IMG/VR virus record: IMGVR_UViG_3300000116_000001
Location: 1 to 36,779 of that record
Length of the DNA: 36,779 nucleotides
Source: a virus
Strand: one strand, 5' to 3'
Of the stretch, positions 5,901-36,779 are shown piece by piece. A program made the position numbers and the translations under genes. Each line of letters opens with the position of its first letter. The first letter of the stretch is position 1. The notes under the pieces were generated by a model, which was given only the letters and a program-made list of their open reading frames with translations, was not told where the DNA came from and made no database searches.

Positions 5901-8367
5901 TAATATTTAATTCTTTTAAAGTTTTTTGATTTAAAAGATTTTCGTACTGAGCATCTGTCTTTACAAGAACATTATCTTTATTTAAAGCTAAAGCGTTAAT
6001 TCTATTTTCATAAGCGCCCTTAGTTTCTTCAGGTAATCGTTTATGAAAAGTGTGCATTTGTTCGTGTCTTAAAACAAAATTGTACCATTCTTCTGGTGTT
6101 TTAAATTGATCTTTAGCTAAAGGCTTTACTCCTTCTACTTTTGGTTTTGTCCATGGAGAATTTTTAAAACTATCTAGTAATGATTTTTTATTTATATTTA
6201 TAGACTTACCATCAAACCAAGCATTAACTTCGTCTCCGCCATCTTTTCTTGTTTTGCTTTTTGACACATAATTTACAGGAGTAAACACTTTTATTTCTTT
6301 TTTTAAAAACCTTGTTTCTCTGTAAATTTCTTTTAAAACTCTAAAATCTAAATAATCTGCAAAAGTTTTAAACGATGGTATAGGCTCTATATCATTAATC
6401 TTTTTGGTATATAATTTTTCTTTGTATGCTTTTTTTAAACCTATAGTATCTCTCATCATAAGCCCAGACTCTGGATCATATTTTATTAACTTTGATGGTG
6501 TGTTCTTGCTGGTAATTTCTGCAGATTTGCCAGTTGAAACTTTGTGTTTTATGTATCTTTTAAAAGACTGTATTCCTGTACTGTTACCGTCAAATCTTAA
6601 TTTTATTAAATCTTTAACTGGTCTGTAATCTATTCTTTTAAGTTCATTCAATAAATCTAAGTCATTAATAAGACCTTTAGAGCCTAAAAATTCTAGTTTT
6701 TTAGTAAATTTACCACCAATACTATAGGTATCTATTTTTTTTTCGTTCTCTGTTATTAAAACTTTAAAACGTTTTATAAGAGGCTCGATGTCTTCTTGTT
6801 TACTTACCTTACCAAGAAGCAAACTTCTAAAATTTTGCTGAGGATTCTCTTTCATAGACTCAATAATGTTATCCATGTATCTTGCTTCAGTTACATTTAA
6901 AGACTGCATGTCTTCTTTTGTCTGTAACTTTTTAAATATGTCTGGATTTTCTAATTCTTTTAAAGCATCCCTATATGATTTAGATGTTTTTCTTAAAGAA
7001 GTAATAATCATTTTATGGTCAGATAATCTTTTTTTAAGTTCTTTAAAATCATTCCATGGCATACCTCTGTTTTTTGCTTTTTCCCAACTTACACCCATAT
7101 AAGTTTGTTTAATACCAGATTCTTGTGATAAAAATCTTGAAAATTCTTTTTCTAAATCAGCTTCTTTTAAAGATTTTATTAAATCATTTTGACCTTTTTT
7201 TGTTTGCAATATCTTAGCTAGAATGTCCAACTCAGTTTCCATTTTATTAGGAGAACGATATGTTTTTGGTCTTGGGTTTATTAAAGTTCCGTCTTTTTTC
7301 ATTCCTTTAGTGTCAACTTTAAACTTTAAATCTTTTTCTAAAAAATTATTTGACTTATTTTTTTGATAAACATCATTCATTATTCTGTTTATTTTTGAGT
7401 AAAAAATTGTGTCTGGACTAGCAACAGCGTTAGGTTGTTCTTTAATTAATTTTTCTTCTAAAAAAATATGAGGCTCATAATCTTTAGGATTAAAAATCAA
7501 ATTATTGTCTACTTCTGCGTCAAACACAGGCATTCCCTCTTCTGCTGTATCTGCAAAATGTATTTTTTCTGAAGCATGTTCTGGAATACTAACGTCATCT
7601 AAGTTTTTATTTTTGTTTATTTTAACTGATTGTGACCTAAGAGAAGACAAAGAAGAACCGATTGTTGCATTTAAAGTACCACCTAATAAAAAAGCTCCAC
7701 CTACGTAATAAGCTGTTTCTTCATTAGTAGAAGTAGGATCTAACGGTCTTCTTATAAATTCTGTAGCTCCAACAAGACCTCCTACTTTTAAACCAGCTTT
7801 TGAAACATTAGCAAGAAATCCTATGCCACCAGTAAAAGGAATTGCAACAAGGTTAATTGGATCTGTTAAGCCTGCTACTAAACTAGGACCAAAATTTCTA
7901 CTAGTAAGAGCCAGTCTTTTTTTTCTTGAAAGATTCTGGTCAATCTTTGATTTTAAAAATTCAAAATGTGATTCATTTCTAACGTCTTTCCAAAGATGCC
8001 TGTATTGTTCGTAACCCTCATCATTTTTATAAGGATTAAATGTTCTATCTACAGGACTTTGCCACCAATCTTTGACACCACCTTGCATTACATTTATATA
8101 TTCATTGTCTTGCATAGTTAAACCATGCCACCACAACCCTACTTCATCGCCTACGTCTGCCCAAAACCCATGGTCGTAATTTGATTTGACTCTATTGTCA
8201 GCTTCTATAGGTTCAAAATTACTATTGTCCTTTGCAAAAAATGGTTGGTTGCTTGGCTTTAATTCTTCATCAACTTGATCGTAAAGTTGTTTGCTTCTAG
8301 CCTCATCGTCTTGAATTTTCTCTGGACTAGTAGTAAAACTTTCTTTGATTGTATCTAAAATACTCAT
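2908..8367 (-). CDS. Very large internal virion / DNA-ejection protein (T7 gp16 position)
   Basis: The ORF is open to 8391 (TTG). An ATG at 8367 gives a classic ATGA overlap with the upstream stop, so MSILDTIKES is the likely start (1819 aa). Gly-rich hydrophobic segments near the N-terminus (LVAGLTDPINLVAIPFTGGIGFLANV, AYYVGGAFLLGGTL) and near the C-terminus fit a membrane-inserting ejection protein. It is the last of three internal-protein genes before the fibre, as in T7-like phages. Confidence 0.7.
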   Translation of the reverse strand: MSILDTIKESFTTSPEKIQDDEARSKQLYDQVDEELKPSNQPFFAKDNSNFEPIEADNRVKSNYDHGFWADVGDEVGLWWHGLTMQDNEYINVMQGGVKDWWQSPVDRTFNPYKNDEGYEQYRHLWKDVRNESHFEFLKSKIDQNLSRKKRLALTSRNFGPSLVAGLTDPINLVAIPFTGGIGFLANVSKAGLKVGGLVGATEFIRRPLDPTSTNEETAYYVGGAFLLGGTLNATIGSSLSSLRSQSVKINKNKNLDDVSIPEHASEKIHFADTAEEGMPVFDAEVDNNLIFNPKDYEPHIFLEEKLIKEQPNAVASPDTIFYSKINRIMNDVYQKNKSNNFLEKDLKFKVDTKGMKKDGTLINPRPKTYRSPNKMETELDILAKILQTKKGQNDLIKSLKEADLEKEFSRFLSQESGIKQTYMGVSWEKAKNRGMPWNDFKELKKRLSDHKMIITSLRKTSKSYRDALKELENPDIFKKLQTKEDMQSLNVTEARYMDNIIESMKENPQQNFRSLLLGKVSKQEDIEPLIKRFKVLITENEKKIDTYSIGGKFTKKLEFLGSKGLINDLDLLNELKRIDYRPVKDLIKLRFDGNSTGIQSFKRYIKHKVSTGKSAEITSKNTPSKLIKYDPESGLMMRDTIGLKKAYKEKLYTKKINDIEPIPSFKTFADYLDFRVLKEIYRETRFLKKEIKVFTPVNYVSKSKTRKDGGDEVNAWFDGKSININKKSLLDSFKNSPWTKPKVEGVKPLAKDQFKTPEEWYNFVLRHEQMHTFHKRLPEETKGAYENRINALALNKDNVLVKTDAQYENLLNQKTLKELNIKKSVDYTEDIPFWAREISSFQSDYGFIANIKDKLPNIKTAPLIGSMMARLSGDHSIPNRLARYGITQPPSVLAELNTRYMIKYKELIDALDNAHVRVNTNNTDPSIFLGVNISSATIRAKEVFAKNKIKEQLKNNKETDKPIMVTHEQVMEAVSRGVISKEYRKRLPDEMMEAINAFIDFTKFHKKVFQDHKTFVSSGGFEKVMLLKKKRSAEIGNIIKANNSKTKNKLSKEQIDALYAKQNELDEQALKYQTSHKLSLEDEKLLRDAGMVKNYEEDFFYRVWNVDKVMADTEGLKKKLLAHYTKNELILKPYTKIIDGQEVKLKEVIPLADMQGYRGITFDKPRVVGQKRERAFTSIKDKMFKGLDDQEFKVAYNKYFNSLKDKGLNPRPKTVQSGARQIEDRVNGEIDQIMTQSAHGDSTNIGGLGIDNFGKYVSGRTTFMSRGVDVPNELIMEYLQLNAKSIASNYKQKVSPASAIIEQFGDHHLDDALSVLEIELITKDLGKNVSKKDIDDIINSFVDTKDKMLGQFNLEDPTSLNKKISTFLRDWASLAYMGKVVVSALPDIGKLVMSQGFQKTFGKGFVGLFENLHMMKHAQGNVQKMGIASDYYMGMMKRRFIEDSGSTAWAGSTSAFGKAFDKVGQKMNDAQGPWYVLNGLTIYTAAMKLQAGVLQADDLLRLSFKSAEGTATPKDILRLLQAGIDKDTAKIISKMPVEKVGANDDVVSKVVTRDLGDDNVLFTANVDSWTGPGSQNARMRFRQAVYTDTNRTIVTPNVSDTPGLMSGGQRIRSKGMQNALSGKVGGMLGYMPDARGGKISNAALSLPFQFFSWGMGANRKIVLSGLSGREAYYMQGVVAMLALGGYSDYLKNPNYWHYKSTEEKIIRAIEVSGIGGMLTDMNFMLETLSQGFLDYPLGLRPAIGIDPRFGEATTVDALGETFGAGPSIPLDILNYIMDDDATTEEGLNLFRRQIPGNSLIWTDGLFKSIYNTTTDVFK

Positions 8368-16514: not shown

Positions 16515-17060
16515 TTAACAGTTGTCCACTTTCAGCTTTTCATCGGTTGCCCAAACTGGACCGAGATCATCTAAAACGGGCTGTATGTTTTTAGATACGC
16601 CCTGTATCTTCTTATAAAAATACAATACTTCGTTACCTTTTACAACTAATGGTTCACTATTAAAGCTAAAACCTAACCATTTTAACCATTTAATGTTTGT
16701 TTTATGCTCAATAGTTATATAATTAGCCACATATTCGTAGTCTGATAGAAAATAATTAGCCCATTTTTTGGTACGTTTAGTAAAATATTTCCAATGTTTA
16801 TCTAATTCTTCCGAAGATAACATCCACACAGTTCCATGTTTAAGGTTATGTGGGTTAGAAACTACACCAAACATTGCTACTACATTGCCATCATCAAGAA
16901 CTGTATAAGTGTTAACGCCTTTTCTTGTGTATCTAAAAGGCAAAACTAATACTTCTAAAGGTGTGTTACCCATAGCACACACCTCGTAATTATCCATTGG
17001 TCGTAGCTTAAAAGCTAAATCAAAAGCATGATTTGGTATAGCTTTTTCTACATAAAGCAC
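16515..17060 (-). CDS. Hypothetical protein between scaffold and capsid (possible acyltransferase-like fold, T7 gp13/DUF2833-like)
   Basis: 181 aa, overlapping the scaffold stop by 1 nt. The motif run GTVWMLSS...KWANYFLSDYEYVANYI...NIKWLKWLGFSF reminds me of DUF2833/GNAT-like phage proteins. This is unverified. Confidence 0.55.
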   Translation of the reverse strand: MLYVEKAIPNHAFDLAFKLRPMDNYEVCAMGNTPLEVLVLPFRYTRKGVNTYTVLDDGNVVAMFGVVSNPHNLKHGTVWMLSSEELDKHWKYFTKRTKKWANYFLSDYEYVANYITIEHKTNIKWLKWLGFSFNSEPLVVKGNEVLYFYKKIQGVSKNIQPVLDDLGPVWATDEKLKVDNC

Positions 17061-17818
17061 TAGACCTTGCCAGCATTATTCAGTCTTTGCCAAGCAGAAT
17101 CTACCTGTGCAACATAAGATGGATCTCTGTCTTTGTTACTATAATACCTCTTGTCGTTCATCATTGTTTTTACATCAGCTACCGTAAGCTCATGCTCTGG
17201 TTGAGCAACTTCTGCCGATCTACCTACTCTAGATTTTTGCATTTCCATTATTCTTTCTAGAGCAGAAACACCTAACGCACTAGTACCTAAAGTAGAAGCA
17301 ATTAATTCCATTTCTTCTGGAGGAAAATTAGCCTGTGCAAATCCAGTAACAGCATTAATTCTGTCTTGACTGTTTTCTCCTAGCTTAGACATTTCTTCTT
17401 CTATGTTAGGAGCAGAACCCATAATAGTATCTATCCATGTGTTAATTCCCTCTTCATACATCTCTTGAGGTAAGCCAAGTTCCTTGCATTTACCACCCCA
17501 CCACTCAGTCATTGGATTAGAATTAACCATTTCTTCGGTTATACCCTCTACTAACTTAGGTAAAACATATTCTTCTGGCAAACCCTCTGATGCTTCTGTT
17601 TCTAATTCCGACAATATACTTTCTCTCATTTCTTCTTGTTTACCTGTAGCAAACTTCTCAAGATTGTTATATGACTTAGCTAAATCATCTAAGTTAACTT
17701 GTCCTTCTTCAGCATTCCAAAACTTTTCTGGTATATAGTCTGGTCTTTCTGATGTAACTACTGGTGCTTCACGTGAAACATTTTCTTCTACTGCTTCTGT
17801 TGCTTGCTCTTCACTCAT
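17060..17818 (-). CDS. Scaffolding protein (putative)
   Basis: 252 aa, very acidic and predicted helical (SEEQATEAVEENVSREAP..., EEMRESILSELETEASEGLPEE). It sits between portal and capsid. Confidence 0.6.
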   Translation of the reverse strand: MSEEQATEAVEENVSREAPVVTSERPDYIPEKFWNAEEGQVNLDDLAKSYNNLEKFATGKQEEMRESILSELETEASEGLPEEYVLPKLVEGITEEMVNSNPMTEWWGGKCKELGLPQEMYEEGINTWIDTIMGSAPNIEEEMSKLGENSQDRINAVTGFAQANFPPEEMELIASTLGTSALGVSALERIMEMQKSRVGRSAEVAQPEHELTVADVKTMMNDKRYYSNKDRDPSYVAQVDSAWQRLNNAGKV

Positions 17819-18098
17819 TTGTATTCTCCTTAACTAATTTTTGGCTAGCGCCTTTATTTGATCTTCTTTGTATTAATCCCACTAAATATCTTTGCCCCTC
17901 TAAATGTCGTAGATGTTGGTCTGTTATTTCAGGACCAGCTACAGCTTCTAGTGTTAGGGCTTTAAGATGTTTAAGAACGTGAGCGCCACCTTGAGTAGTA
18001 AACAAGGCGTTAAACAAAGCATTTAAGTTCTCCTCATCTTCTGGTTTACGTTTTATTCCGTCTAAACCAATAAGCGTATTGGGCTTTTTCTCTGCCAT
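17811..18098 (-). CDS. Small conserved head-module protein (Bbp19-like?)
   Basis: 95 aa directly after the portal gene. FNALFTTQGGAHVLKHLKALTL...HLEGQRYLVGLIQRR resembles the Bbp19-type family seen next to portals in BPP-1-like phages (from memory). Confidence 0.5.
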   Translation of the reverse strand: MAEKKPNTLIGLDGIKRKPEDEENLNALFNALFTTQGGAHVLKHLKALTLEAVAGPEITDQHLRHLEGQRYLVGLIQRRSNKGASQKLVKENTNE

Positions 18099-18106
18099 AA
18101 TGTCTC

Positions 18107-19693
18107 CTATTGAGGAGGTATCTCCTCTTCTGTTGGTTGTTGTTGTTGTTGTTGTTGCATCATCTGTTGCATTTGTTGCGCAGCTTGTTGCATTTCTTCC
18201 GATGAACGTATAAGTTCTTCTGGAATTCCTAGTTTTTTAGCTACATATTTAGCTACTTCATCTTGTTTTATTAAGATATTCATAAGTTCTGGACCTACTC
18301 TACCCTGTATCATTGCTAAAAATCTATCTATATTAGCTACATCTGCTTGATTTTGTGCTTGTGCTAATGGAGACGAGGATCTAACTTTAACTTCTCTACC
18401 ATTTATTATTGGTATTGTTATTCTTCCTTGTTTTTTAAGGATATAAACTACTCTTTGCAACACTGGTGTAACCATTTCTGATTGCAATCTACCAAATGCT
18501 GCACCTATTTGACGTGACAAGTCAGCCTGTCTTTCGGCTACTTCAGTAGCAGACATAGGTGTTTTCTCATTAGGATTGCCCAACATATCATTATATAAGG
18601 CTTTCTTAATATTCGTTCTCATATCTCTCAAAACTAAATCTGATACTTGGAAACTTCCAACTGGGGCTACAGGAGTTAATCCTTGAGATCCTGGGGCTTT
18701 AGGAATTATAGTTCCTGGAATTAATTGAATGTTGTCTACATTAATAACTCCGTCATCTTCTACCTGATACATACCTGATATAGACATCTGTGCATTTTCT
18801 AATATTAACTCGACAGTAAGATTTGCTACCTTAATTGCTGGTAAAGCTAACTGTAATGGTCCACGACCATACACTTCTCCAGCACATTTACTCCATCTAT
18901 ACACCACATATGGGTTAGAACCAGAGCCTTTAAAGGTTTCTGTGTAGAGTTTATGCTCATACATCTTTGCAATAGCACAAAAGTGGTACTCTTCTTCCTT
19001 AGTATTAAAGTAATTTCTGTATACAACCTCTATTATTTCACATTCTTTGTCTGGATTTTTCTCCATATCCATCATTATTTTGTCTGAAAACTCTGCGCTT
19101 GGATAAGCAATAGCTAGTTCGTGCAGTTTAATCATACGTTTTCTAAAGATATGGTCTACCTTATCATCATGTCCAGATGTCATTGATACATGTGGTAATG
19201 GTATTGCTTTGAATTTAACTGGATTAGTTGCATCTCCCTCTTCTACCAAAAGAACACCTGTTCCTAAAGCAACATCTAAGAATGATTCGTGTATTTCTTG
19301 TGAGAAGTTTGAGTTTTGTAATATCTCAAACACATAGTCAGTTACCTCGTCTAACATAAGATTAACTTCTTTCTCTTGCTCTTTAGGTACTTCACTTCCA
19401 GCTACAAAATCAGCCCATCTAGCATAGTTTGGTACTATACCAGCCTGTAATCTTGAGGCAAACTCTTGAACTCCTACTACAGCAGTCTCATCAAAGATGC
19501 GGTCTGTACGTTGACGACCAGAAGTTTCAGTAAAAAAGCTTTCTCTTTGTGGTAAAGCGTATTCATAACACTGTTCAAAAGTATCCGACCATTGTTGTTT
19601 TAATCGTTTAGCATGCTCGTATCTAGCTAGTAATTGCTTAACTGGATCATCATTATAGTTAAGACCAGATTCTGTTTTTACTTCAATAACCAT
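18107..19693 (-). CDS. Portal (head-tail connector) protein
   Basis: 528 aa (T7 gp8 is of similar size). It lies downstream of TerL and upstream of scaffold and capsid. The C-terminal tail is Q/E-rich (QQAAQQMQQMMQQQQQQQPTEEEIPPQ). Confidence 0.85.
   Translation of the reverse strand: MVIEVKTESGLNYNDDPVKQLLARYEHAKRLKQQWSDTFEQCYEYALPQRESFFTETSGRQRTDRIFDETAVVGVQEFASRLQAGIVPNYARWADFVAGSEVPKEQEKEVNLMLDEVTDYVFEILQNSNFSQEIHESFLDVALGTGVLLVEEGDATNPVKFKAIPLPHVSMTSGHDDKVDHIFRKRMIKLHELAIAYPSAEFSDKIMMDMEKNPDKECEIIEVVYRNYFNTKEEEYHFCAIAKMYEHKLYTETFKGSGSNPYVVYRWSKCAGEVYGRGPLQLALPAIKVANLTVELILENAQMSISGMYQVEDDGVINVDNIQLIPGTIIPKAPGSQGLTPVAPVGSFQVSDLVLRDMRTNIKKALYNDMLGNPNEKTPMSATEVAERQADLSRQIGAAFGRLQSEMVTPVLQRVVYILKKQGRITIPIINGREVKVRSSSPLAQAQNQADVANIDRFLAMIQGRVGPELMNILIKQDEVAKYVAKKLGIPEELIRSSEEMQQAAQQMQQMMQQQQQQQPTEEEIPPQ
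18137..18157 (-). repeat. (CAA)7 microsatellite encoding Q7 in the portal C-terminal tail
   Basis: The plus strand reads (ttg)7 at 18137-18157, in frame with the portal ORF. Confidence 0.9.
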
Positions 19694-19956
19694 TATGCAC
19701 CTAGAGTTGTTCTGCTTAACATATCAGAAGATTGTTCAAATCCTTTGCCACCTTTAGAACCTGTTAGTAAATTTCTTCCTCCAAACTTAGCACTGTATTT
19801 TGCTACCCTACGTTCAAATAAATTTTCTTTTAATTGAGTTGCTTCGTTGTTAGCAATAGTTCTTTCACGCTTACGTGCAGCAGCCGCTCTTTCTTCAATA
19901 GCTGGATCTGGTGGTGGTGGTGGTGGTGGAGCTGATGGTCCTGAACCTCCGCACAT
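19693..19956 (-). CDS. Small protein with a poly-proline tract, between TerL and portal
   Basis: 87 aa, MCGGSGPSAPPPPPPPDPAIEERAAAARKRER.... It is tightly packed between neighbours (1-nt overlap with the portal start, 1-nt gap after the TerL stop). Confidence 0.6.
   Translation of the reverse strand: MCGGSGPSAPPPPPPPDPAIEERAAAARKRERTIANNEATQLKENLFERRVAKYSAKFGGRNLLTGSKGGKGFEQSSDMLSRTTLGA
19909..19929 (-). repeat. (CCA)7 microsatellite encoding P7
   Basis: The plus strand reads (tgg)7 at 19909-19929. This corresponds to codons 10-16 of the 87-aa ORF. Confidence 0.9.
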
Positions 19957-21838: not shown

Positions 21839-22321
21839 TCATAGTTTCTTTGCCTGTCTTCTTATTGACGGTGTAACAATTCCATAAAACTCTCTATCAA
21901 GTTTATTAAATTTTGTTATATTACTGTAATGTTTGGGTTGTGTGGTTTTAAGATTGAGTAATGTTTTGTGATCTATCTTAACTTTATACAAATTACCCTG
22001 TTTGCCAGCAATATTTTTAGCAGCTGTTTTGTCTGTTGTAAACCAATTGCCGTAAGTTTTAGCGCCAGTACCCCTTACTTTGTTATCAATCTTATTAAAT
22101 GCAATATTTTTTTTAGCATCCGTTAGGGTTAGTTGTTTATCTGGAACCCCCCTGTAAAGAGTATGAGGTCTTGTTTTGTAGTTTTTAAGTAAGGTCTTGC
22201 CCGTTGTATAAGCAAACTTACCTATTCTAACTGCTGGTACTACACTCGCTACTGTTAAAGCAGTTTCAATTGGATTGTTCTTGGCGTAGTTAACAGCATT
22301 GTCAAACAAGGATGCAGACAT
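21839..22321 (-). CDS. Hypothetical basic protein with ADP-ribosyltransferase-like R / T-T / E motif spacing
   Basis: 160 aa with LYRG (R57), WFTTD (T95-T96) and LDREFYGIV (E144). The spacings are 38 and 48 aa, with a beta-strand-like NLYKVKID in between. No search was done. Confidence 0.55.
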   Translation of the reverse strand: MSASLFDNAVNYAKNNPIETALTVASVVPAVRIGKFAYTTGKTLLKNYKTRPHTLYRGVPDKQLTLTDAKKNIAFNKIDNKVRGTGAKTYGNWFTTDKTAAKNIAGKQGNLYKVKIDHKTLLNLKTTQPKHYSNITKFNKLDREFYGIVTPSIRRQAKKL

Positions 22322-29349: not shown

Positions 29350-29765
29350 TGGCAAATGATTTAAACAGACTGTGTTTAATTGGTAGGCTTGGCAAGGATG
29401 CCGAGCTTGACACTACACAAGCGGGTAAACAATATATGAAATTTAGTTTAGCAACTAACAGAAAGAAAGGACAAGAAGAAGTAACCGAGTGGCATAACAT
29501 AACAGTATGGAATGAGAAATTGGTTGAACACTTACATCCTTATCTAACCAAAGGTAAACAAATATATCTTGAGGGTTTAGTTACTTCATGGAAGAAAGAA
29601 GATGGTAACACCGTACCTTTTGTTGAAGTAAGTTATGGTCACAACATTCAATTACTAGGTAGTAAGAATGATGCGCCAGCTCAAGTGCCAGAAGAACCTA
29701 GTAAGGGCGGTAGTGTTTTAGATAAACCAGCAGCCAGACCTGACGATGATGGCGTGCCTTGGTAG
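29349..29765 (+). CDS. ssb: Single-stranded DNA-binding protein
   Basis: 138 aa. The OB-fold start is NRLCLIGRLGKDAELDTTQAGKQYMKFSLATN...EWHNITVWNEKL. The acidic C-terminal tip is DDDGVPW. Confidence 0.88.
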   Translation: MANDLNRLCLIGRLGKDAELDTTQAGKQYMKFSLATNRKKGQEEVTEWHNITVWNEKLVEHLHPYLTKGKQIYLEGLVTSWKKEDGNTVPFVEVSYGHNIQLLGSKNDAPAQVPEEPSKGGSVLDKPAARPDDDGVPW

Positions 29766-30085
29766 TGGGTAAGAAAAAACCAAACAAAAAAATGCTGGAA
29801 CTGTATAGGATACAGAAAGAATATGGCTGTGTCCTATGCAAAAAATTAGAGACAAGACAGACAACCCATACTGAGATACATCATCTTAGAAAAGGTATGG
29901 GTATGTCACAGCGTGGTGTAATGTGCATTCCTTTATGTGTGTTTCATCATAGAGAACATGGACATGGATATCATGGTCTTGGTCGAAGAGCATTTGAAGC
30001 TAAGTATAATTGCACAGAAGAAGAGTTACTATCTGCTTATGAGGTAGGCTCTGACAATTACATTAATTGGGACTCTCTTAGTTAG
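29759..30085 (+). CDS. HNH nuclease of the Ref/DUF968 type (recombination-enhancement-like)
   Basis: The Cys/His array is CVLCKK...HTEIHHLRKGMGMSQRG...CIPLCVFHHREHGHGYHGLGRRAFEAKY. The start is ambiguous: TTG 29759, GTG 29765 or ATG 29792 (MLELYR...). None has a clear SD. Confidence 0.55.
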   Translation: MVVGKKKPNKKMLELYRIQKEYGCVLCKKLETRQTTHTEIHHLRKGMGMSQRGVMCIPLCVFHHREHGHGYHGLGRRAFEAKYNCTEEELLSAYEVGSDNYINWDSLS

Positions 30086-30305
30086 AAAGAGGGTTGTCGC
30101 TTCGAGCTTTGATGATTGCTATCTCAGCTTTAAGCACTGCTATCTCACCTTGGTTGACAGCTATATTAGCAACTAAAGGTTTAATGTCTGGGGCTGACAT
30201 GGACTCAATCACTTCCAGTCTATTCATTACACTACCAACAGCCATTAACATACCAGCTAATGTAGTTGCAATTCCTAATCCTACTCCCCAGCTTTTAATA
30301 TCCAT
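30078..30305 (-). CDS. Last late gene: 75-aa membrane protein (one N-terminal TM plus an amphipathic coiled-coil tail; holin- or spanin-like)
   Basis: ATG with a GAGAGGA SD 7 nt upstream, overlapping the upstream gene by 11 nt. The TM segment is WGVGLGIATTLAGMLMAVGSVM, followed by GEIAVLKAEIAIIKA. The mirror + ORF (30094..30321) has only a TTG start. Confidence 0.55.
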   Translation of the reverse strand: MDIKSWGVGLGIATTLAGMLMAVGSVMNRLEVIESMSAPDIKPLVANIAVNQGEIAVLKAEIAIIKARSDNPLSN

Positions 30306-31824
30306 TTATAATCCTCTCTAGTTCTAGTTGTGCTTTAATCTTATCACCAACAGCTTGATCAATTTTTTCTTGATACTTGTATAGCTTGTCACGGTTGATG
30401 TAACTAATTTCTTTATATATATTTCTATTGTCAACATAATCTCTGGACTCATAGCTGCCTCCATTAATATTTAATTGATCCTTAAATATATTTTGATTTA
30501 CATTACCATAAGAGTCAATAGATACTGATGATTGCATAGCCTTAGCTACTAAAATATTTACTTGAACAATCTTCTGGCTAACACTGGCTGTAGTCTTAGC
30601 TACCTCAGCACGTATATCTTCTATCGAAACAGAGACAGTATCTTCTCTAGTAGTTTCTTCAGACCGCTCTTCTGAAATGCTATCTTGTCTGAGGGCGAGG
30701 GTTTCATTGTCTCCACTTCCTCTGTCATTTGTTTCACTTCGGGTAACAGTCGTGCTTTCTTGATTCTCGGTTTGTCTTCCAGACTTTCCAGTAATTCTTT
30801 CTTCGTCTTCTCTTGGTGGACTACCATTTCCTGTTCTAGTATCCTCGACTCCATTGACTTCTTCACTTTCTCCTCCGCTAACCTCTTGTTGTATAGGCTC
30901 TGGCTCAGTGATTCCGCCAAGGTCTGAGGTTTGGATGTCGGTCTCCCGTTCTTGGAAGACTTCTTCTTCAAATGCAATGTCTTCTCGTTGGATTGGAATT
31001 TCTTTTGCGACTTCGATTTCTGTTGAGAATGATTCGATGTTCTCTTGATTGTCATAGTTTATTGTCTCCATGAATACATCAATGATCCCTGTATTAATTT
31101 CCTCTACCGCCTGTGGCTCAAAGTTAATCTCTTCAAGCATGGTAAATTCTATTGTCGGTTCATTAAATGTTTCAAAGTTAAATTCTTCTGGGATATATTC
31201 TATAATTTCTATATCCTCTACCACATTATATACTGTTTCACTCATAGTCTTCAACTCAGCTACCTGTGTAGTATTTAATAAACTGTATTCTACAGTAAGT
31301 GTAGGGTTCTTTAAGTCTATGGCTCTGTGTAAAGCAGACTGAGATGACTCGGTGAAATCAAACCTAGCCTTAATTGTATAGTCATTCTGATTGTTGATAC
31401 CCTGTGTATAACTATCTGTATATGTTGAGTAACTGCTACAGTTATATCCACTACAACCAGGTATAGCTACATCTCTTATCTGTGTAGTAACTGTACCATC
31501 TGCACCAGTTATAGTCTGAGTCATTTTAATTTCTTGGTCGTATTGATTCCAGCCCCACATGTCAGCACCAAAGGTAGATGTCCAACCACCATTAATTTGT
31601 GATTGATTGAGTGTATCTCCTAGTGTGATTGTATTCTCTATGAAATCTCCATGAACAGCAGCAACCGTACTGTTGCCATGATTGTGAGATGGATCGTTAC
31701 AGTTCCAGCCACCATGTCCTTGATTGTTGTTAAAGAATTGTTGAGGTAATAGATTGCCAGTAGTTTCAGCAAACAAAGAAGTTGAAGCTATAAGTAGAAA
31801 AAAAATTTTAGCTATTTGTTCCAA
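30295..31824 (-). CDS. Secreted 509-aa protein with a hyper-acidic low-complexity core
   Basis: Signal-peptide-like MEQIAKIFFLLIASTSLFA/ETT. A Cys/Trp/His-containing N-domain is followed by an E/T/I-rich stretch and a C-terminal coiled-coil-like tail. It overlaps both neighbouring genes. Confidence 0.6.
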   Translation of the reverse strand: MEQIAKIFFLLIASTSLFAETTGNLLPQQFFNNNQGHGGWNCNDPSHNHGNSTVAAVHGDFIENTITLGDTLNQSQINGGWTSTFGADMWGWNQYDQEIKMTQTITGADGTVTTQIRDVAIPGCSGYNCSSYSTYTDSYTQGINNQNDYTIKARFDFTESSQSALHRAIDLKNPTLTVEYSLLNTTQVAELKTMSETVYNVVEDIEIIEYIPEEFNFETFNEPTIEFTMLEEINFEPQAVEEINTGIIDVFMETINYDNQENIESFSTEIEVAKEIPIQREDIAFEEEVFQERETDIQTSDLGGITEPEPIQQEVSGGESEEVNGVEDTRTGNGSPPREDEERITGKSGRQTENQESTTVTRSETNDRGSGDNETLALRQDSISEERSEETTREDTVSVSIEDIRAEVAKTTASVSQKIVQVNILVAKAMQSSVSIDSYGNVNQNIFKDQLNINGGSYESRDYVDNRNIYKEISYINRDKLYKYQEKIDQAVGDKIKAQLELERIINGY

Positions 31825-32423
31825 GCCATACTCCTCTTGCCTACACTAGACACCTGTTTAATTCTATGGAATCCACCTACCTCTTTCCATCTTGCTTTAG
31901 CTTTATCACCTATCAATCCATCCACAGGGCAAGGTGAACCCGCATCCATCATGGATTTCCAGATGTTTTCGTCTTGACATGCTCTTGCTATTGCCGCTAC
32001 TTTCATACCTAGTTTAGCTAATACAGCTACTGACTTTCTCATTTCGCATTGTGGATCTACATAGTATGAGCCGAATGAACCACTGAAACCAATGACTGTA
32101 ACACCAGCAGCGAGAGGAATGACACAAGAGTCCTGTCCATACACAGACATAGAGGGCGCTGAGGCTGGGTTTACGGCTGTTTTCTGGTTGGTACTATTGT
32201 TTGTCTCATTATTTGTCGTGCTATTAGAGGATGAGCCTGATTGATATGTGGTTGCTGACTCATATCCACCTGTGATTGCTGTGTTAGAACCAGCATTATT
32301 AGACTGGGTATTGGTAGTACTACCACTAGAAGTTACATCACCTACTGCATTCTCTATACATAAGATGATAATGAACAAGGCTAAGATGCCTACACCTTTT
32401 AAGACTTTCTTCCGCATTTCCAT
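31812..32423 (-). CDS. Signal-anchored or secreted 203-aa protein with an S/T/N-rich linker and a 4-Cys C-terminal domain
   Basis: The N-terminus is MEMRKKVLKGVGILALFIIILCIENAVG. The linker is SSGSTTNTQSNNAGSNT...NNETNNSTNQ. The C-domain is CVIPLAAGVTVIGFSGSFGSYYVDPQC...ARACQDEN...GSPCPVDG. Confidence 0.6.
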   Translation of the reverse strand: MEMRKKVLKGVGILALFIIILCIENAVGDVTSSGSTTNTQSNNAGSNTAITGGYESATTYQSGSSSNSTTNNETNNSTNQKTAVNPASAPSMSVYGQDSCVIPLAAGVTVIGFSGSFGSYYVDPQCEMRKSVAVLAKLGMKVAAIARACQDENIWKSMMDAGSPCPVDGLIGDKAKARWKEVGGFHRIKQVSSVGKRSMAWNK

Positions 32424-32653
32424 TTTCTTAATGCCAGTGCTTTCCTAGTTGGTCTACCTTTAGAATCTTTCATTGGTCCTTTAACTCCAGACATTCTGGC
32501 ACAGAAACTTGCACGTCTACCCGCAGCTTTAGATCCTTTAGGTGCTTTGCCTGTCACTGGAGGCTTAAGCTTAGAGCCAGTCTTCTTATTGAAGTGCGCT
32601 CTACCCGCTGCATTAAGTCCACCTGTAGGGTTCTGAAATTTTTTAGCTACCAT
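32399..32653 (-). CDS. Very basic 84-aa protein (DUF5872-like?)
   Basis: FQNPTGGLNAAGRAHFNKKTGSKLKPPV...GRRASFCARMSG...KGRPTRKALALRKWKC matches my memory of a small family seen in marine phages and giant viruses. Unverified. Confidence 0.55.
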   Translation of the reverse strand: MVAKKFQNPTGGLNAAGRAHFNKKTGSKLKPPVTGKAPKGSKAAGRRASFCARMSGVKGPMKDSKGRPTRKALALRKWKCGRKS

Positions 32654-32778
32654 TATTTCTTCTTCTTAGGAAAGCCTTTCTTCATATTGTCGTATGCTTT
32701 CTTAGTTACAGTAGAGTTCTTTTTACTTCTACTTGTCCCAGCTTTCTTACGTTTGTTTATGTTTTCATATAAGCTCAT
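32653..32778 (-). CDS. Very basic 41-aa protein (below the track cutoff)
   Basis: My translation: MSLYENINKRKKAGTSRSKKNSTVTKKAYDNMKKGFPKKKK. A strong AAGGAG SD lies 6 nt upstream of the ATG at 32778, and the stop overlaps the next ATG (TAATG). Confidence 0.55.
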   Translation of the reverse strand: MSLYENINKRKKAGTSRSKKNSTVTKKAYDNMKKGFPKKKK

Positions 32779-32780
32779 AG

Positions 32781-33215
32781 TTATCTCCTTACTAATGATC
32801 CGCCAAAATATAGACCAACGATTGAACTAACTACATGCGTGTCGAGGGGCGTAATAACTAGCCCAGTCATTGGCTTCCATTGTGTTATGTCTGTTGATGA
32901 TGCAAATATCCACCACCCTTGCATGACTGCCTCAGTGTAACCTACATAGATTGGCATTGATGAGTCAATAAAGGGGGCTAACTTAGGCAATACAATAATC
33001 GCTACCACACAGATTAATGCAATCCATCGCCTAGTATTTTTTGTAAATGAATCTTGCACATCACGTGCCTTATCTTTTTGTTTAGCATCAAAGTTAGCTC
33101 GTTGCATAAGCATCTTCTGTTCATCTGCTTTATCTTTTCCTTTCTGAGCCATGATGGATAAGACTCCACCTAGTACTGTTGATACAAGCATTGATATTAA
33201 TTCTATTGGAAACAC
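32781..33215 (-). CDS. Integral membrane protein, ~3 TM (holin candidate)
   Basis: 144 aa with a GTG start preceded by AGGAGAAG. The hydrophobic helices are ISMLVSTVLGGVLSIMA, WIALICVVAIIVLPKLAPFI and VVSSIVGLYFGGSL. A long K/D/Q-rich loop lies between the first two helices. Confidence 0.55.
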   Translation of the reverse strand: MFPIELISMLVSTVLGGVLSIMAQKGKDKADEQKMLMQRANFDAKQKDKARDVQDSFTKNTRRWIALICVVAIIVLPKLAPFIDSSMPIYVGYTEAVMQGWWIFASSTDITQWKPMTGLVITPLDTHVVSSIVGLYFGGSLVRR

Positions 33216-33224
33216 AATCTTCTC

Positions 33225-34274
33225 CTATGTAGCTAGTGCTATTGTTCCGTTACTTCCTACCATTGGCATTTCAGCAAAAGCCATGTAAATATACTTTGAA
33301 TTTTCTTGGTTTGCTTTACCATCTGTGGTTGCTAATCTAAATCCATTACTTTCAAATTGAATAGTACAGTTTGTTGCAGTAGTGGTATCAACAAATTTAA
33401 GTGTTCTCGTTCTTGTACCACCTAAACCATAACCTGTTAGTCCTGATACTTTCACTGCCCATTCTTCAGTAGCATCCCATTTTTTAAACATTATCCATTT
33501 AGGTCTAAAACCACAATAAACTTTAGTTCCATATAGATGTCCTGTGCCTGAATAAAATCCAAACTTACTAAACCCTTTTACTTCTGCAAAACAATAAGCA
33601 ATACAAGGAGCGCCATCAGTATTATGATGTGATTTAGTTCCTATACTCCATAAAGTAGTTGTAGGTTTTGTGTCATTCCAACCATCAGCATCATCTTGAA
33701 ACGCTCCTGTTGATGCAAACTGTATTAAGTCTGTTTCAGTATCAGAGTACATTGTTGTGCCACCATTGAACACATCTCCTCTATCTGAAAGTGTTGTTGC
33801 TTTTGCTATTATAACTTTCGGTACAGCACCTAATCCATGACCAATAGTTCCTACTGCTCCTGTACCTGTATACCTACATATGCTTATACCAGCAGTCTGA
33901 TTAACTTGAACAGTAGAATTTATTGAACCTGATGTGTTGCTTGATTCTGAACCAGCATTTATTTTCCAACAAGCAGACATATATTTTTGACCAGCATCAT
34001 TAGTATTTGCTATGTTTCCAGTTAAAGTAAATCCATCTGATGTATAACTAGCCACATATGTTGTTGTATCAACAGCATTGTTTCCACTAGGAATCCAATT
34101 CTTAGCTGTACCCTCTGATGAGTTGTTTAATACTGGGTGTCCAGTACCCTCATATACTTTAATCCAAAGAGCATCAGGTTTAAAAGCCATGTTGTTAATT
34201 GTGGTTGTGCTATCACTACCATCCCATGTAGGACAGTCAAAGTGATCGTGTGGTTGAAATGAAATAAATGCCAT
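33225..34274 (-). CDS. Structural / receptor-binding accessory protein with three internal repeats
   Basis: 349 aa. The recurring module is W-x-G...F(K/R)P-x-x-WI(K/M): TWDGSDSTTTINNMAFKPDALWIKV, RYTGTGAVGTIGHGLGAVPKVIIAK and FYSGTGHLYGTKVYCGFRPKWIMFK. It lies downstream of the fibre genes. Confidence 0.6.
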   Translation of the reverse strand: MAFISFQPHDHFDCPTWDGSDSTTTINNMAFKPDALWIKVYEGTGHPVLNNSSEGTAKNWIPSGNNAVDTTTYVASYTSDGFTLTGNIANTNDAGQKYMSACWKINAGSESSNTSGSINSTVQVNQTAGISICRYTGTGAVGTIGHGLGAVPKVIIAKATTLSDRGDVFNGGTTMYSDTETDLIQFASTGAFQDDADGWNDTKPTTTLWSIGTKSHHNTDGAPCIAYCFAEVKGFSKFGFYSGTGHLYGTKVYCGFRPKWIMFKKWDATEEWAVKVSGLTGYGLGGTRTRTLKFVDTTTATNCTIQFESNGFRLATTDGKANQENSKYIYMAFAEMPMVGSNGTIALAT

Positions 34275-34278
34275 ATCG

Positions 34279-35718
34279 TTATCCTGTGTTCTTAATGTTC
34301 TTAGTACATATTGCTAAGAATCCTGATGGTGGAACATATTCAAAAATTCCAACTCCAGCAGAATCTGCATTGCCGCTGCTGACTAAAGTCGTCCCAAACG
34401 CCCCTCTTCCGAAGTTGCAATACATATAATAATTTGCACTACTATGGTTTACTGCTGTAACATTGACTCCCCAAAACTCATCTCCTTTAGCAAAAGATAA
34501 TCCAGGATTAGCTCCTGTTGCAGGATTTCCTACATTGGAAGTTCCAGGTGCATTGAACCATGTACCATTTTTACCAAACCATATCTTAGATGTAGCACTT
34601 GTTAAATCTACTGCCATCATAATGATGTTATTAACACTTGCTTGAACACCATAGTTTACAGTTCCACCACCACCATCATCTATAAGATTGGGTGTGCCAG
34701 TCATGGGTTGGTAAGTAATTCCCTCGCAACCATTTGAACCTGTTTCTTTTCCTACGATTGCATTAGCTCCAGTATATTGCCATCTTCTTGAAGCATGAGT
34801 ACCATTTTTATAAATTGATATTGTGTTGCCATCTGCTTGTGTGTTTGCTGATGCTGGTTTAAATTCTGCATACCATTTACCATCTGACACCATCATTGTT
34901 CCATTAACACCTCTAGCATTGCCTGTTGTTCCTAGATAAGCTGTGCCAGCATGGTCTACATACTCACCACCATTATTAATAGATTGATAATCTGATTGGT
35001 TTTTATCTAATGTTATAAAGTTATTACTAGGTGTATCTGTGTCTTGTATAAATGTTCCTGATGTAGCCATGTTATTACTTTCGCCACTAGAATCTAATCC
35101 AAAGTTACTAGCATTTTCGTACTTTAGGAAGAACCCATTTGTTCCATAAGTTACACTTGGAGATAATTTTGCTTTCCATTCACCTGTTGTACTGTCAGTT
35201 TCACCGAATGTTGATGGTGCATAAGACTGTCCATCTGCAAAATGGGTATGGGCTAACAATCCATTAAAGTTTCTATTAAGCCCTTTAAAGTTTCCTATTC
35301 TGTGTTCAACATTCATGTTTATACCTAAGTCTTGATTTTGGTTAGGTATAGTATTAGTAGCTAAAGATGTTTCTGCATCTCCACCATTAATGTAAATTCT
35401 TACTCTATTTGCTGCTGTTGATTGGGTAGTGTCACACCTAACTACCAAGTGATACCACGAGGTAGGGTCACGAAGTAATCTGTTCGTTACTTGATTTAAA
35501 ACATTTGAGCTACTTGCATATGATTGCACTTGTATTCCATAAGTTGACGTTACAGCTATATATGCAAAATCTGCATTATTACCTTCATAACTATTTGCCC
35601 ATATTACTTTATCAGAAACTGGATTATCAGGTAGTTTAAACCATGTGCTAAATGTCCAAGTTTTTCTGTTACTTGCATCTAGTGTTTTGCTTAAATATGA
35701 TGATGCTGTTGTTGCCAT
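34279..35718 (-). CDS. LamG (concanavalin-like lectin) + SPRY domain protein, probable tail-fibre or receptor-binding component
   Basis: 479 aa. The LamG-type pattern is KTWTFSTWFKL...SWYHLVVRCDT...VRIYINGG...FNGLLAHTHF. The SPRY-type core is GKWYAEFKP. It lies immediately downstream of the tail fibre. Confidence 0.7.
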   Translation of the reverse strand: MATTASSYLSKTLDASNRKTWTFSTWFKLPDNPVSDKVIWANSYEGNNADFAYIAVTSTYGIQVQSYASSSNVLNQVTNRLLRDPTSWYHLVVRCDTTQSTAANRVRIYINGGDAETSLATNTIPNQNQDLGINMNVEHRIGNFKGLNRNFNGLLAHTHFADGQSYAPSTFGETDSTTGEWKAKLSPSVTYGTNGFFLKYENASNFGLDSSGESNNMATSGTFIQDTDTPSNNFITLDKNQSDYQSINNGGEYVDHAGTAYLGTTGNARGVNGTMMVSDGKWYAEFKPASANTQADGNTISIYKNGTHASRRWQYTGANAIVGKETGSNGCEGITYQPMTGTPNLIDDGGGGTVNYGVQASVNNIIMMAVDLTSATSKIWFGKNGTWFNAPGTSNVGNPATGANPGLSFAKGDEFWGVNVTAVNHSSANYYMYCNFGRGAFGTTLVSSGNADSAGVGIFEYVPPSGFLAICTKNIKNTG

Positions 35719-36779
35719 AATGTCCTCTAGTTAAATGCCATGCTGTTAGCCATACCAACACTTGCTGTTATACTGAATGCTCGATCTACAGTTTGACCCT
35801 CTGCATCTGTTAATCTTAATGTAAAATTATACGTTGTGCTAGCTGTTGGAGATGGAGCTGTACCTGTTATTACACCTGTTCCGCTATTAAGCGTTAAATT
35901 CATTGTTGATGCTGGGGTATTAGCGTTACTTGTTAAGACACTTGTGGTCTCGCTGAAAGCTACTGTTGAGTCTGATGATCCATCTACATCTATAGACACT
36001 GATGCTCCAGCTGCAACCTCGCCTAAACTTCCAGCACTTGTGCTAAAGGTAGGAGCTGCGCTTGCTGTAATAATATTATTGGTACTACGTCCAGCATTAC
36101 CATCTGGATTCTCTATTCTCACATGGTAAGCACCAGTTGCTAAAGTTACATTTACAGATAGCGTTGTAGCATTAGTAAATGAAACAGAGTTAGGTCTAGT
36201 AATTGCACCAGTAGTTTTAATAAATTCAACAATAGGTACAGTTACAAAGTTTGAACCCGTAATATTAATTGTTGTTGCTGATGATGGAGCTATTGTTTGT
36301 GATACATTAGCTACTGTTGGTTTAGTCTCTCCAACTGTCACACTTCCACCAAGACTAACTGCGCTTCCATTAATGGTAATAGCGGAAGCTGCCAATTTGG
36401 CAATAGGAATGCCAGCAAGAGTAATGTTTAGTGTCTCGTTGCTACCATCGTTAGTCTCAGTGAGAGTAACACCAGTACTTCCTGTAGCCGTTAGCTTAGC
36501 TAACAAACCACCAGCACTGCTGTCGTTTGAGGAAATTTTTACGTTTGAATCTGTTGATGCAACTGAGTTCCATGCCGAACCTGAGTAATACTTAAAGGTA
36601 TTAGATGAGGTATTGAAGTTTAAATCACCAGCATTTAAAGATGAATCTGGATCTCCACTAGTTACTCTGTATCTGTCTGCAAAACTATTAACTCCAGCTA
36701 TATTGCCAGCTACAGTAGTTACATTAGATGCAATTCCAGCTACCGAAGTAACGTTTGATGCAATCCCAGCCACTGTTGT
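34556..36779. repeat. Terminal redundancy, right copy (identical to 1..2224)
   Basis: Same evidence as the left copy. Both boundaries lie inside ORFs (LamG-SPRY gene and tail-fibre gene). This looks like a circular-assembly overlap rather than a physical DTR. Confidence 0.93.
35727..36779 (-). CDS. Tail fibre, C-terminal ~350 codons only (duplicate of 1172..2224; cut by the window edge)
   Basis: The translation is identical to the C-terminal part of the 579-aa ORF. The leading M in the track ORF is an edge artefact. Confidence 0.85.
   Translation of the reverse strand, partial: TTVAGIASNVTSVAGIASNVTTVAGNIAGVNSFADRYRVTSGDPDSSLNAGDLNFNTSSNTFKYYSGSAWNSVASTDSNVKISSNDSSAGGLLAKLTATGSTGVTLTETNDGSNETLNITLAGIPIAKLAASAITINGSAVSLGGSVTVGETKPTVANVSQTIAPSSATTINITGSNFVTVPIVEFIKTTGAITRPNSVSFTNATTLSVNVTLATGAYHVRIENPDGNAGRSTNNIITASAAPTFSTSAGSLGEVAAGASVSIDVDGSSDSTVAFSETTSVLTSNANTPASTMNLTLNSGTGVITGTAPSPTASTTYNFTLRLTDAEGQTVDRAFSITASVGMANSMAFN

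Follow-up and report, generated by a model that had tools for sequence, protein, structure and literature searches.

A putative terminal lysis region with a lipoprotein-less three-gene module in the spanin slot of a marine podovirus genome that lacks a recognisable endolysin

Phages of SAR11 rank among the Earth's most abundant viruses, and carbon release in the ocean is governed by their lysis step. The lysis genes of these pelagiphages have so far been known only by annotation. Among the described systems closest to the locus examined here, two-component spanins (lambda Rz/Rz1; T7 gp18.5/gp18.7) are encoded by two genes, often mutually overlapping, located with those of the holin and endolysin; the o-spanin is a small outer-membrane lipoprotein with a lipobox, the i-spanin having an N-terminal transmembrane (TM) segment followed by a periplasmic coiled coil. 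Spanins can be replaced by the cationic peptide disruptin (phage phiKT gp28). Class I holins and GTA_holin_3TM (PF11351), the holin family of gene transfer agents (GTAs), are small proteins encoded in lysis cassettes. The Mu gp25 releasin (DUF2730, PF10805) is also small, has an N-terminal TM segment and is encoded in a lysis cassette; releasins are N-out/C-in and confined to Mu-like transposable phages (PMC9239132). Here, the last six open reading frames (ORFs) of the late operon were analysed in the virus of IMG/VR record IMGVR_UViG_3300000116_000001, positions 1 to 36,779, a stretch referred to in full as the window. The best explanation, held at a probability of about 0.5, is that these ORFs form a terminal lysis region consisting of a holin and a lipoprotein-less module in the spanin slot, with a wall-degrading enzyme that was not recognised in the genome.

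The window comprised a complete circular genome of 34,555 bp, bases 1 to 2224 being identical to bases 34556 to 36779, and the phage is a marine SAR11-type podovirus resembling Hodr and HTVC010P. Its late operon was one long minus-strand unit running from the terminase through the portal, capsid, tail tube, three ejection proteins, and three tail-fibre genes to the six ORFs (Table 1). Coordinates, start codons, and junctions of these ORFs were exactly as in a preliminary description made from the sequence, and the physical properties given there agreed with hydropathy and composition. The stop codon of the 75-amino-acid (aa) gene overlapped by 8 nucleotides (nt) the end of a convergent plus-strand ORF of the early operon (29759 to 30085), and thus the cassette closes the late operon. 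The number of promoters and terminators inside the cassette was not above chance expectation, and no tRNAs were found in the window. The nearest cultured phage was Pelagibacter phage Hodr, with 76.6% capsid identity and nearly the whole backbone shared. At the end of its late operon, Hodr encodes two coiled-coil proteins, one with its TM segment at the C-terminus and the other at the N-terminus, a 136-aa SleB-like cell wall hydrolase (PDB 4f55; E value, 3.7e-5), and a GTA-type holin; the syntenic place in HTVC010P holds an M15 peptidase and membrane proteins. These neighbours bear out the view that the cassette occupies the position of lysis genes.

The six genes do not form one evolutionary unit; they split into three modules with different distributions: the 144-aa protein, the 41-aa and 84-aa pair, and the 203-, 509-, and 75-aa trio. 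In the trio, the order 4-Cys (203-aa family), 509-like, 75-like was fixed across 80 IMG/VR loci plus isolates, about 60 loci being counted with it. Five loci (L046, L066, L068, L079, and L085) had a contiguous series of GH24 lysozyme, GTA holin, 4-Cys, 509-like, and 75-like genes, and no other spanin candidates could be identified in them. The trio was followed by a Peptidase_M15 gene in HTVC023P, L011, L053, L064, L069, and L099 (Peptidase_M15_3 in HTVC023P and L011) and preceded by a GTA holin in the myovirus Mosig, while two long-read contigs (L009 and L010), whose genes were fragmented by frameshifts, gave little context information. Numbered loci that correspond to named phages are L001 (S28C10), L002 (HTVC024P), L003 (CRP-810), L006 (Manatee Spring podovirus), L008 (HTVC010P), L102 (Skadi), L103 (HTVC203P), and L105 (HTVC031P). 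In both position and gene order, this is how phages that infect Gram-negative bacteria encode their spanins, and the trio appears to be a conserved, horizontally mobile, phage-only module in the spanin slot of canonical lysis cassettes. In many marine phages this slot is thus filled by a phage-only module of three genes without a lipoprotein, which makes the trio a concrete candidate for a novel way of disrupting the outer membrane.

Each member of the trio has a distinct architecture. The C-terminal domain of the 203-aa protein contains cysteines at positions 100, 126, 149, and 165, and one further cysteine lies in the signal segment. Residues C100, D123, C126, E127, K141, C149, Q150, D151, C165, P166, and W179 (full-length numbering) were invariant in the family. 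At 90% identity it comprised more than 5,245 clusters, and no Pfam domain was present in any of them. Among 185,579 cellular genomes, only 10 contigs of marine metagenome-assembled or single-amplified genomes (MAGs/SAGs) encoded a member, which suggests mis-binned phage DNA, and the family appears to be essentially phage restricted. The possibility that the 203-aa protein is a lipoprotein was rejected, as the cysteine in the signal segment is not conserved and the S28C10 homologue has none. The 509-aa protein (pI 4.2) belongs to a family of 142 clusters at 50% identity and 400 to 718 aa, the N-terminal domain of which aligned across all homologues; relatives in L011 and the Manatee Spring phage have TonB-like Pro/Lys/Glu repeats in place of the acidic linker. 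A carbohydrate-binding identity of this N-terminal domain (CBM_4_9) was discarded, with two sub-threshold matches only (S28C10, E value 0.009; one of 72 family members, E value 0.006) that make the resemblance no more than a lead. The 75-aa protein carries three perfect heptads (NIAVNQG/EIAVLKA/EIAIIKA) and has homologues of 74 to 140 aa, all ending in NPL(A/S/G/L)x. Flanking charges, judged by eye on four homologues, favour an N-in/C-out topology for it, and a sub-threshold FtsL-like match was returned by NCBIfam (E value, 0.009).

Members of these families were also found under other names or unannotated. CRP-810 gp51 (L003, 5168 to 5590), annotated as a lysozyme, has the TM segment, coiled coil, and NPLGR end of the 75-aa family. 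In Manatee Spring podovirus (MW202481), an unannotated 4-Cys gene lies at L006 ~3881 to 4384, upstream of a protein annotated as TonB, so the 4-Cys family extends to freshwater phages. Also downstream of this 4-Cys gene are those for an HExxH protein of small size, a holin-like protein with 3 TM segments, and a GH24 lysozyme with a hydrophobic N-terminal segment resembling a signal or signal-arrest-release (SAR) sequence.

The 75-aa protein has an i-spanin-like architecture, its coiled coil being predicted to lie in the periplasm, and the trio resembles two-component spanins in its mutually overlapping genes and in its location with holin and endolysin genes in other phages. Unlike those systems, it comprises a third gene, the 75-aa protein has as its putative partner a secreted protein of 400 to 700 aa with a long disordered linker, and the coiled coil, at only three heptads, gives a periplasmic part much shorter than that of known i-spanins. 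No similarity of the trio to spanin families was identified by Pfam, PHROGs, or NCBIfam. For the 75-aa protein, the DUF2730 annotation of the S28C10 homologue pointed to a releasin, which HMMER did not support: PF10805 gave no match at an E value of ≤1 for the window protein, HTVC023P gp48, Mosig_200, or CRP-810 gp51. Unlike a releasin, the 75-aa protein has a charge bias that suggests the opposite, N-in/C-out orientation. The trio may act as a lipoprotein-less, periplasm-spanning complex in the outer-membrane step. The 75-aa protein would be anchored in the inner membrane and present its short coiled coil, the secreted 509-aa protein would bridge the periplasm via its long extended linker, with its N-terminal domain contacting the wall or the outer membrane, and the 203-aa protein, presumably disulfide bonded, would be the periplasmic partner.

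That no endolysin can be recognised in the complete genome, as first described, was upheld by every search performed. Scans with Pfam and PHROGs of every ORF of at least 70 aa recovered capsid, portal, scaffold, tail-tube, terminase, single-stranded DNA-binding protein (SSB), exonuclease, and tail-fibre families and returned no lysozyme, transglycosylase, amidase, or peptidase family; NCBIfam scans of ten ORFs returned no endolysin family. All 315 six-frame segments of the genome were then searched at relaxed thresholds with the M15 enzymes of HTVC010P, HTVC023P, and L011, the GH24 enzymes of Manatee Spring podovirus and T4 (E), Hodr's SleB-like hydrolase, T7 lysozyme, lambda R, and the pesticin-like HTVC031P gp53, and the best E value was 0.12. 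No relic was identified in the genome using tblastn with the endolysins of relatives. The sole match to an endolysin-named family was that of phrog_342 to the 1827-aa ejection protein (aa 1264 to 1615 against profile positions 721 to 1051), which was dismissed as the aligned part lies outside the lytic domain of the profile. A lone HExxH motif (HEQMH; 6052 to 6066, aa 776 to 780) is present in the same ejection protein; the surrounding region was covered by no Pfam, PHROG, or PDB family and may represent a zincin-like domain, the ejection protein then being a polyvalent injected protein. Profile searches with both giant ejection proteins against PDB sequences gave no match, and no virion lysozyme domain was detectable in the window. 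By these searches the genome appears to contain no recognisable cell wall-degrading enzyme, and a complete genome and cassette of this kind make the question of how the wall is broken directly testable.

An endolysin of classical function could be encoded elsewhere in the genome and be too divergent to recognise. Sequence methods do miss some lysins, and about a dozen ORFs of the window had no family assignment, several of them being absent from Hodr; the candidates are those that lack a homologue in Hodr (160, 182, 216, 250, 194, 113, 97, and 91 aa). However, none of these is shared with other carriers of the cassette, whether S28C10 (complete genome) or L013, L016, L019, L020, L027, L029, and L040 (~14 to 20 kb each), the 160-aa candidate looks like an ADP-ribosyltransferase, and most of the others lie in the early region. 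A divergent endolysin is accordingly regarded as improbable.

Comparison with S28C10 (AP013540), a T7-like pelagiphage, revealed a common block of ~7 kb with 42 to 75% protein identity, containing the three tail-fibre genes and the 144-, 203-, 509-, and 75-aa genes (window 30078 to 35718 plus 1172 to 2911; L001 10930 to 17965). The block is contiguous in S28C10, between a tail fibre and TerL. The distal tail-fibre genes were 49 to 75% identical to those of S28C10 and had no match in Hodr, while outside the block the window genome matched Hodr. The tail-fibre/lysis block thus appears to have been exchanged between two unrelated podovirus backbones, in a swap of host-range and lysis modules. S28C10 also encodes a T7 gp3.5-like "lysozyme" (L001, 31126 to 31557) in which the zinc ligand His17 is replaced by Asp and which stops short of the His and Cys ligands at the C-terminus; probably this amidase is inactive and retains a regulatory role only. 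An intact T7-type lysozyme (6347 to 6772) was identified alongside the trio in L052.

This comparison bears on the idea that the missing muralytic activity resides in a novel fold, either the 4-Cys domain of the 203-aa protein or the N-terminal domain of the 509-aa protein. Both proteins are predicted to be Sec exported, and the 4-Cys domain has invariant acidic and polar residues beside its cysteines (C-E, C-Q-D, D123, and K141), as a catalytic site might; the invariant Asp, Glu, and Gln thus leave room for an enzymatic role. The window and S28C10, whose backbones are unrelated, have only the tail-fibre/cassette block in common, and the endolysin probes found no active endolysin in either, the gp3.5-like protein of S28C10 being degenerate and a pesticin-like lysozyme absent; S28C10 was searched with these probes and not against Pfam or PHROGs. 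Likewise, no Pfam endolysin was found within 10 kb on either side of the cassettes in L013 and L016 to L019. Elsewhere, however, the same proteins with the same invariant residues are mostly encoded downstream of GH24, M15, or T7-type endolysins, usually immediately after a true endolysin and holin and in the spanin position, where a muralytic 203-aa or 509-aa protein would be redundant. Moreover, phages of the Skadi type lack the trio, yet no soluble endolysin was found in them (whole genome for Skadi; 12 kb for HTVC024P). Profiles of the 4-Cys domain, the 509-aa N-terminal domain, and the whole 509-aa family had no match among PDB sequences. AlphaFold models of the 4-Cys domain had a mean predicted local distance difference test (pLDDT) score of 57 with 56 sequences and 48 with 86 sequences, with a helical core of moderate confidence; these low-confidence models gave no fold match, lysozyme-like or other, by Foldseek against PDB (E value about 10) and only uncharacterised sequence relatives against BFVD. 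The proposal of a hidden enzyme, although its premise of export stands, is thereby weakened; it is considered unlikely, with somewhat more weight than the divergent endolysin.

For the 144-aa protein, holin is the most likely function. It has the size, TM segments, and charged C-terminus expected of a holin and matched phrog_38283 (E value, 2e-7). Its family comprised 981 homologues, all of ~144 aa, without a Pfam domain and without fusions. Among cultured phages of SAR11 and Roseobacter, 23 carried a member, in each case behind the tail fibres and at the position of the lysis genes. In the T7-like HTVC031P, the homologue takes the position of the T7 holin, gp17.5, and a pesticin-like muramidase is encoded after TerL; in L070 and L071, a gene for a SleB-like hydrolase lies directly upstream. 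The muramidase, HTVC031P gp53 (L105, 5950 to 6426), is annotated as a putative peptidase and matches the pesticin muramidase domain (PDB 4aqn; E value, 3e-9); it is likely the endolysin of T7-like pelagiphages, encoded outside the cassette. Members of GTA_holin_3TM are found at the same place in other phages (Mosig_203, Hodr 19443 to 19823, and L011), and the 144-aa protein resembles them, and class I holins, in its small size and lysis-cassette position. It further shares with GTA_holin_3TM a hydrophobic N-terminal segment rich in Gly/Ser, an amphipathic stretch with charged residues, a TM segment in the middle, and, at the C-terminus, a hydrophobic "IIGxYFGg" segment that terminates in basic residues. 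A profile of the family (f144) matched the GTA-type holin ORF of L078 (E value, 2.8e-5), and hhalign gave a probability of 75% against GTA-type holins with deeper profiles, over 24 columns of the last TM segment, and 6% with shallow profiles. A relation of the two families is suggested, and only suggested, by these similarities. As a holin, the 144-aa protein would make a lethal lesion in the inner membrane and time lysis.

Members of the 144-aa family carry the label "peptidase M15" in GenBank, namely, Skadi1_40 (L102, 3504 to 3935), HTVC203P gp31 (L103, 3504 to 3935), and HTVC024P gp35 (L002, 5686 to 6117), all membrane proteins of 143 aa. Skadi-1 has been described as encoding a peptidase M15 for cell lysis (PMC10504331). 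The family does share its genomic position with the M15 endolysins of the HTVC010P type (Peptidase_M15_3, PF08291). In contrast to true M15 enzymes, which have a soluble VanY-like fold, it has two to three TM segments; the family alignment contains no conserved histidine and no H-x6-D...H zinc site, Pfam gave no match for the window protein or HTVC024P gp35, and the hhalign probability against true M15 sequences was 0.3%. The label is thus unsupported and should be corrected: what has been cited as the lysis enzyme gene in pelagiphages of the Skadi type encodes a small membrane protein without peptidase features.

The Skadi-type phages also raise the possibility that the 144-aa protein acts as the key effector of lysis in its own right, so that no soluble endolysin is needed. 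It could block wall synthesis in the manner of small phages with single-gene lysis proteins, unleash host autolysins after membrane depolarisation, or release a virion-associated lysozyme. In Skadi, HTVC203P, and HTVC024P, the family occurs where HTVC010P has its M15 peptidase and gp38, and it is the only annotated lysis gene. The Skadi genome, which carries the 144-aa family, DUF6321, and the 41-aa family, gave no M15, SleB, or GTA-holin match, its only lysozyme-like domain being the C-terminus of an internal virion protein, and the 144-aa gene was negatively associated with recognised endolysins. Against an effector role, 144-like genes coexist with the SleB-like hydrolase in L070 and L071 and with the pesticin-like muramidase in HTVC031P, which is the behaviour of an ordinary holin, and the route through a virion lysozyme would lack its enzyme in the window. 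To our knowledge, no double-stranded DNA phage lyses by a single protein. This alternative is likewise thought unlikely, falling between the hidden muralytic fold and the divergent endolysin.

Several results weigh against the preferred reading of a holin with a spanin-slot module. A spanin-type function needs prior degradation of the wall, and the enzyme for this step was not recognised here. No lipobox cysteine is conserved in the 203-aa or 509-aa families, and no alternative-frame or embedded ORF with a lipobox that could encode an o-spanin was identified in the cassette; lacking a lipoprotein, the trio falls outside the family of two-component spanins. With respect to the holin, the 144-aa protein had no Pfam match to PF11351, its similarity to GTA-type profiles is confined to the 24 columns noted above, and, unlike the gene of a typical holin, its gene in the window does not adjoin an endolysin gene, as the homologues in L070 and L071 do. 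Among 33 assessable non-redundant loci, with probes covering five enzyme families, a recognised endolysin was present in 1 of 10 loci with the 144-aa gene (the SleB-like case) and in 14 of 23 loci without it (Fisher P = 0.009, which is not a true probability as the loci are related). This rarity of endolysins runs against a simple holin role. All protein functions of the cassette, moreover, are putative assignments made from sequence. A broader reading of the same pattern is that marine podoviruses forming a large and very abundant set bring about lysis without a classical endolysin, via a new wall-degrading fold (4-Cys or 509-aa) or a mechanism driven by the 144-aa protein that is undescribed for double-stranded DNA phages. 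The set would include this phage and the T7-like pelagiphages of the S28C10 type, and perhaps the cultured Skadi, HTVC203P, and HTVC024P as well; this reading is less likely than not but has a real chance.

The description of the cassette as envelope directed does not extend to the 41-aa and 84-aa proteins, in which no TM segment, signal peptide, or hydrophobic segment could be identified; nothing points to an envelope role for either. The 41-aa protein (pI 10.6; 15 K+R) matched phrog_25774 (E value, 2.5e-21). It recurs, as does the 84-aa protein, where the late operons of HTVC010P, HTVC024P, and Skadi end; its homologue in HTVC010P (L008, 26724 to 26876) is unannotated, 90% identical, and overlaps gp45 in another frame. 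The 84-aa protein (pI 12.0; 24 K+R) is a member of DUF6321 (PF19846; E value, 7e-28; 97.5 bits against a cut-off of 28.5), which is present in HTVC010P (gp43), Hodr, Skadi, and cyanopodoviruses, and its gene adjoins the 144-aa gene in L013 to L019, on other backbones. Like disruptin, the two proteins are of small size and strongly cationic, and their genes belong to a lysis cassette. Unlike disruptin, they have no evident amphipathic helix and occur far from lysis genes too (Hodr), and the DUF6321 domain is also the C-terminus of large proteins in larger PHROG families. Both are probably cytoplasmic and travel with the late-operon ends of this phage group.

The cassette could alternatively serve another envelope function, such as superinfection exclusion or envelope remodelling, or contribute to virion structure. 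The 203-aa protein had PHROG matches labelled superinfection exclusion, and a position right after the tail fibres would also fit tail accessory proteins. These matches were, however, sub-threshold (E values, 0.004 and 0.31) and lie in the low-complexity N-terminal part of the protein (aa 2 to 88), and PADLOC returned nothing below an E value of 0.6. Assembly into virions in the cytoplasm is hard to square with signal peptides and membrane anchors, and synteny with holins and endolysins was consistent across podo-, sipho-, and myovirus contexts. The exclusion or remodelling role put forward earlier did not withstand these results, and functions of this class are regarded as very improbable. 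A mobile envelope module has been described in pelagiphages, the viral curli (type VIII secretion system, T8SS) "multigene transfer" module (Wittmers et al. 2022); its components CsgG, CsgF, CsgA/B, as well as FecR, are unrelated to the cassette, which was therefore not assigned to it.

Table 1. Coordinates of the cassette genes, their junctions and predicted segments, and the adjoining tail-fibre genes in the window
Feature	Residues (aa)	Coordinates	Strand	Remarks
144-aa ORF		32781-33215	minus	GTG start
TM1 of 144-aa protein	~4-22	33150-33206	minus	hydropathy, strong
TM2 of 144-aa protein	63-83 (65-83 by hydropathy)	32967-33029	minus	hydropathy, strong
C-terminal segment of 144-aa protein	126-141	32793-32840	minus	weaker hydrophobicity; protein ends ...SLVRR
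Junction 144 aa/41 aa				2-nt gap
41-aa ORF		32653-32778	minus	
Junction 41 aa/84 aa				TAATG overlap
84-aa ORF		32399-32653	minus	
Junction 84 aa/203 aa				25-nt overlap
203-aa ORF		31812-32423	minus	
Signal peptide of 203-aa protein	1-28	32340-32423	minus	
S/T/N-rich conserved segment of 203-aa protein	between signal peptide and 4-Cys domain		minus	
4-Cys domain of 203-aa protein	~90-185	31869-32156	minus	
Junction 203 aa/509 aa				13-nt overlap
509-aa ORF		30295-31824	minus	TTG start
Signal peptide of 509-aa protein	1-19		minus	
N-terminal domain of 509-aa protein	20-190	31255-31767	minus	conserved; guessed beta-rich
Acidic extended linker of 509-aa protein	191-420	30565-31254	minus	230 residues, 26% D+E
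C-terminal domain of 509-aa protein	421-509	30298-30564	minus	guessed helical
Junction 509 aa/75 aa				11-nt overlap
75-aa ORF		30078-30305	minus	
TM segment of 75-aa protein	6-27	30225-30290	minus	followed by coiled coil
Distal tail-fibre genes (349-aa DUF7483 protein and 479-aa protein)		33225..35718	minus	directly upstream of cassette

The DUF7483 tail-fibre gene upstream of the cassette was identified by its match to PF24299 (E value, 5.6e-76), and PHROG tail-fibre families also matched the distal tail-fibre genes. The head module of this HTVC010P/Hodr-like phage encodes a Bbp19-like small protein (17811 to 18098; E value, 3e-9) and a T7 gp13-like internal virion protein (16515 to 17060; E value, 2e-6; phrog_308, E value, 7e-27). 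The 160-aa ORF (21839 to 22321), which has no equivalent gene in Hodr, gave a weak match to ART-PolyVal (E value, 0.026), and its LYRG, FTTD, and REFYG motifs look like those of an R-S-E ADP-ribosyltransferase.

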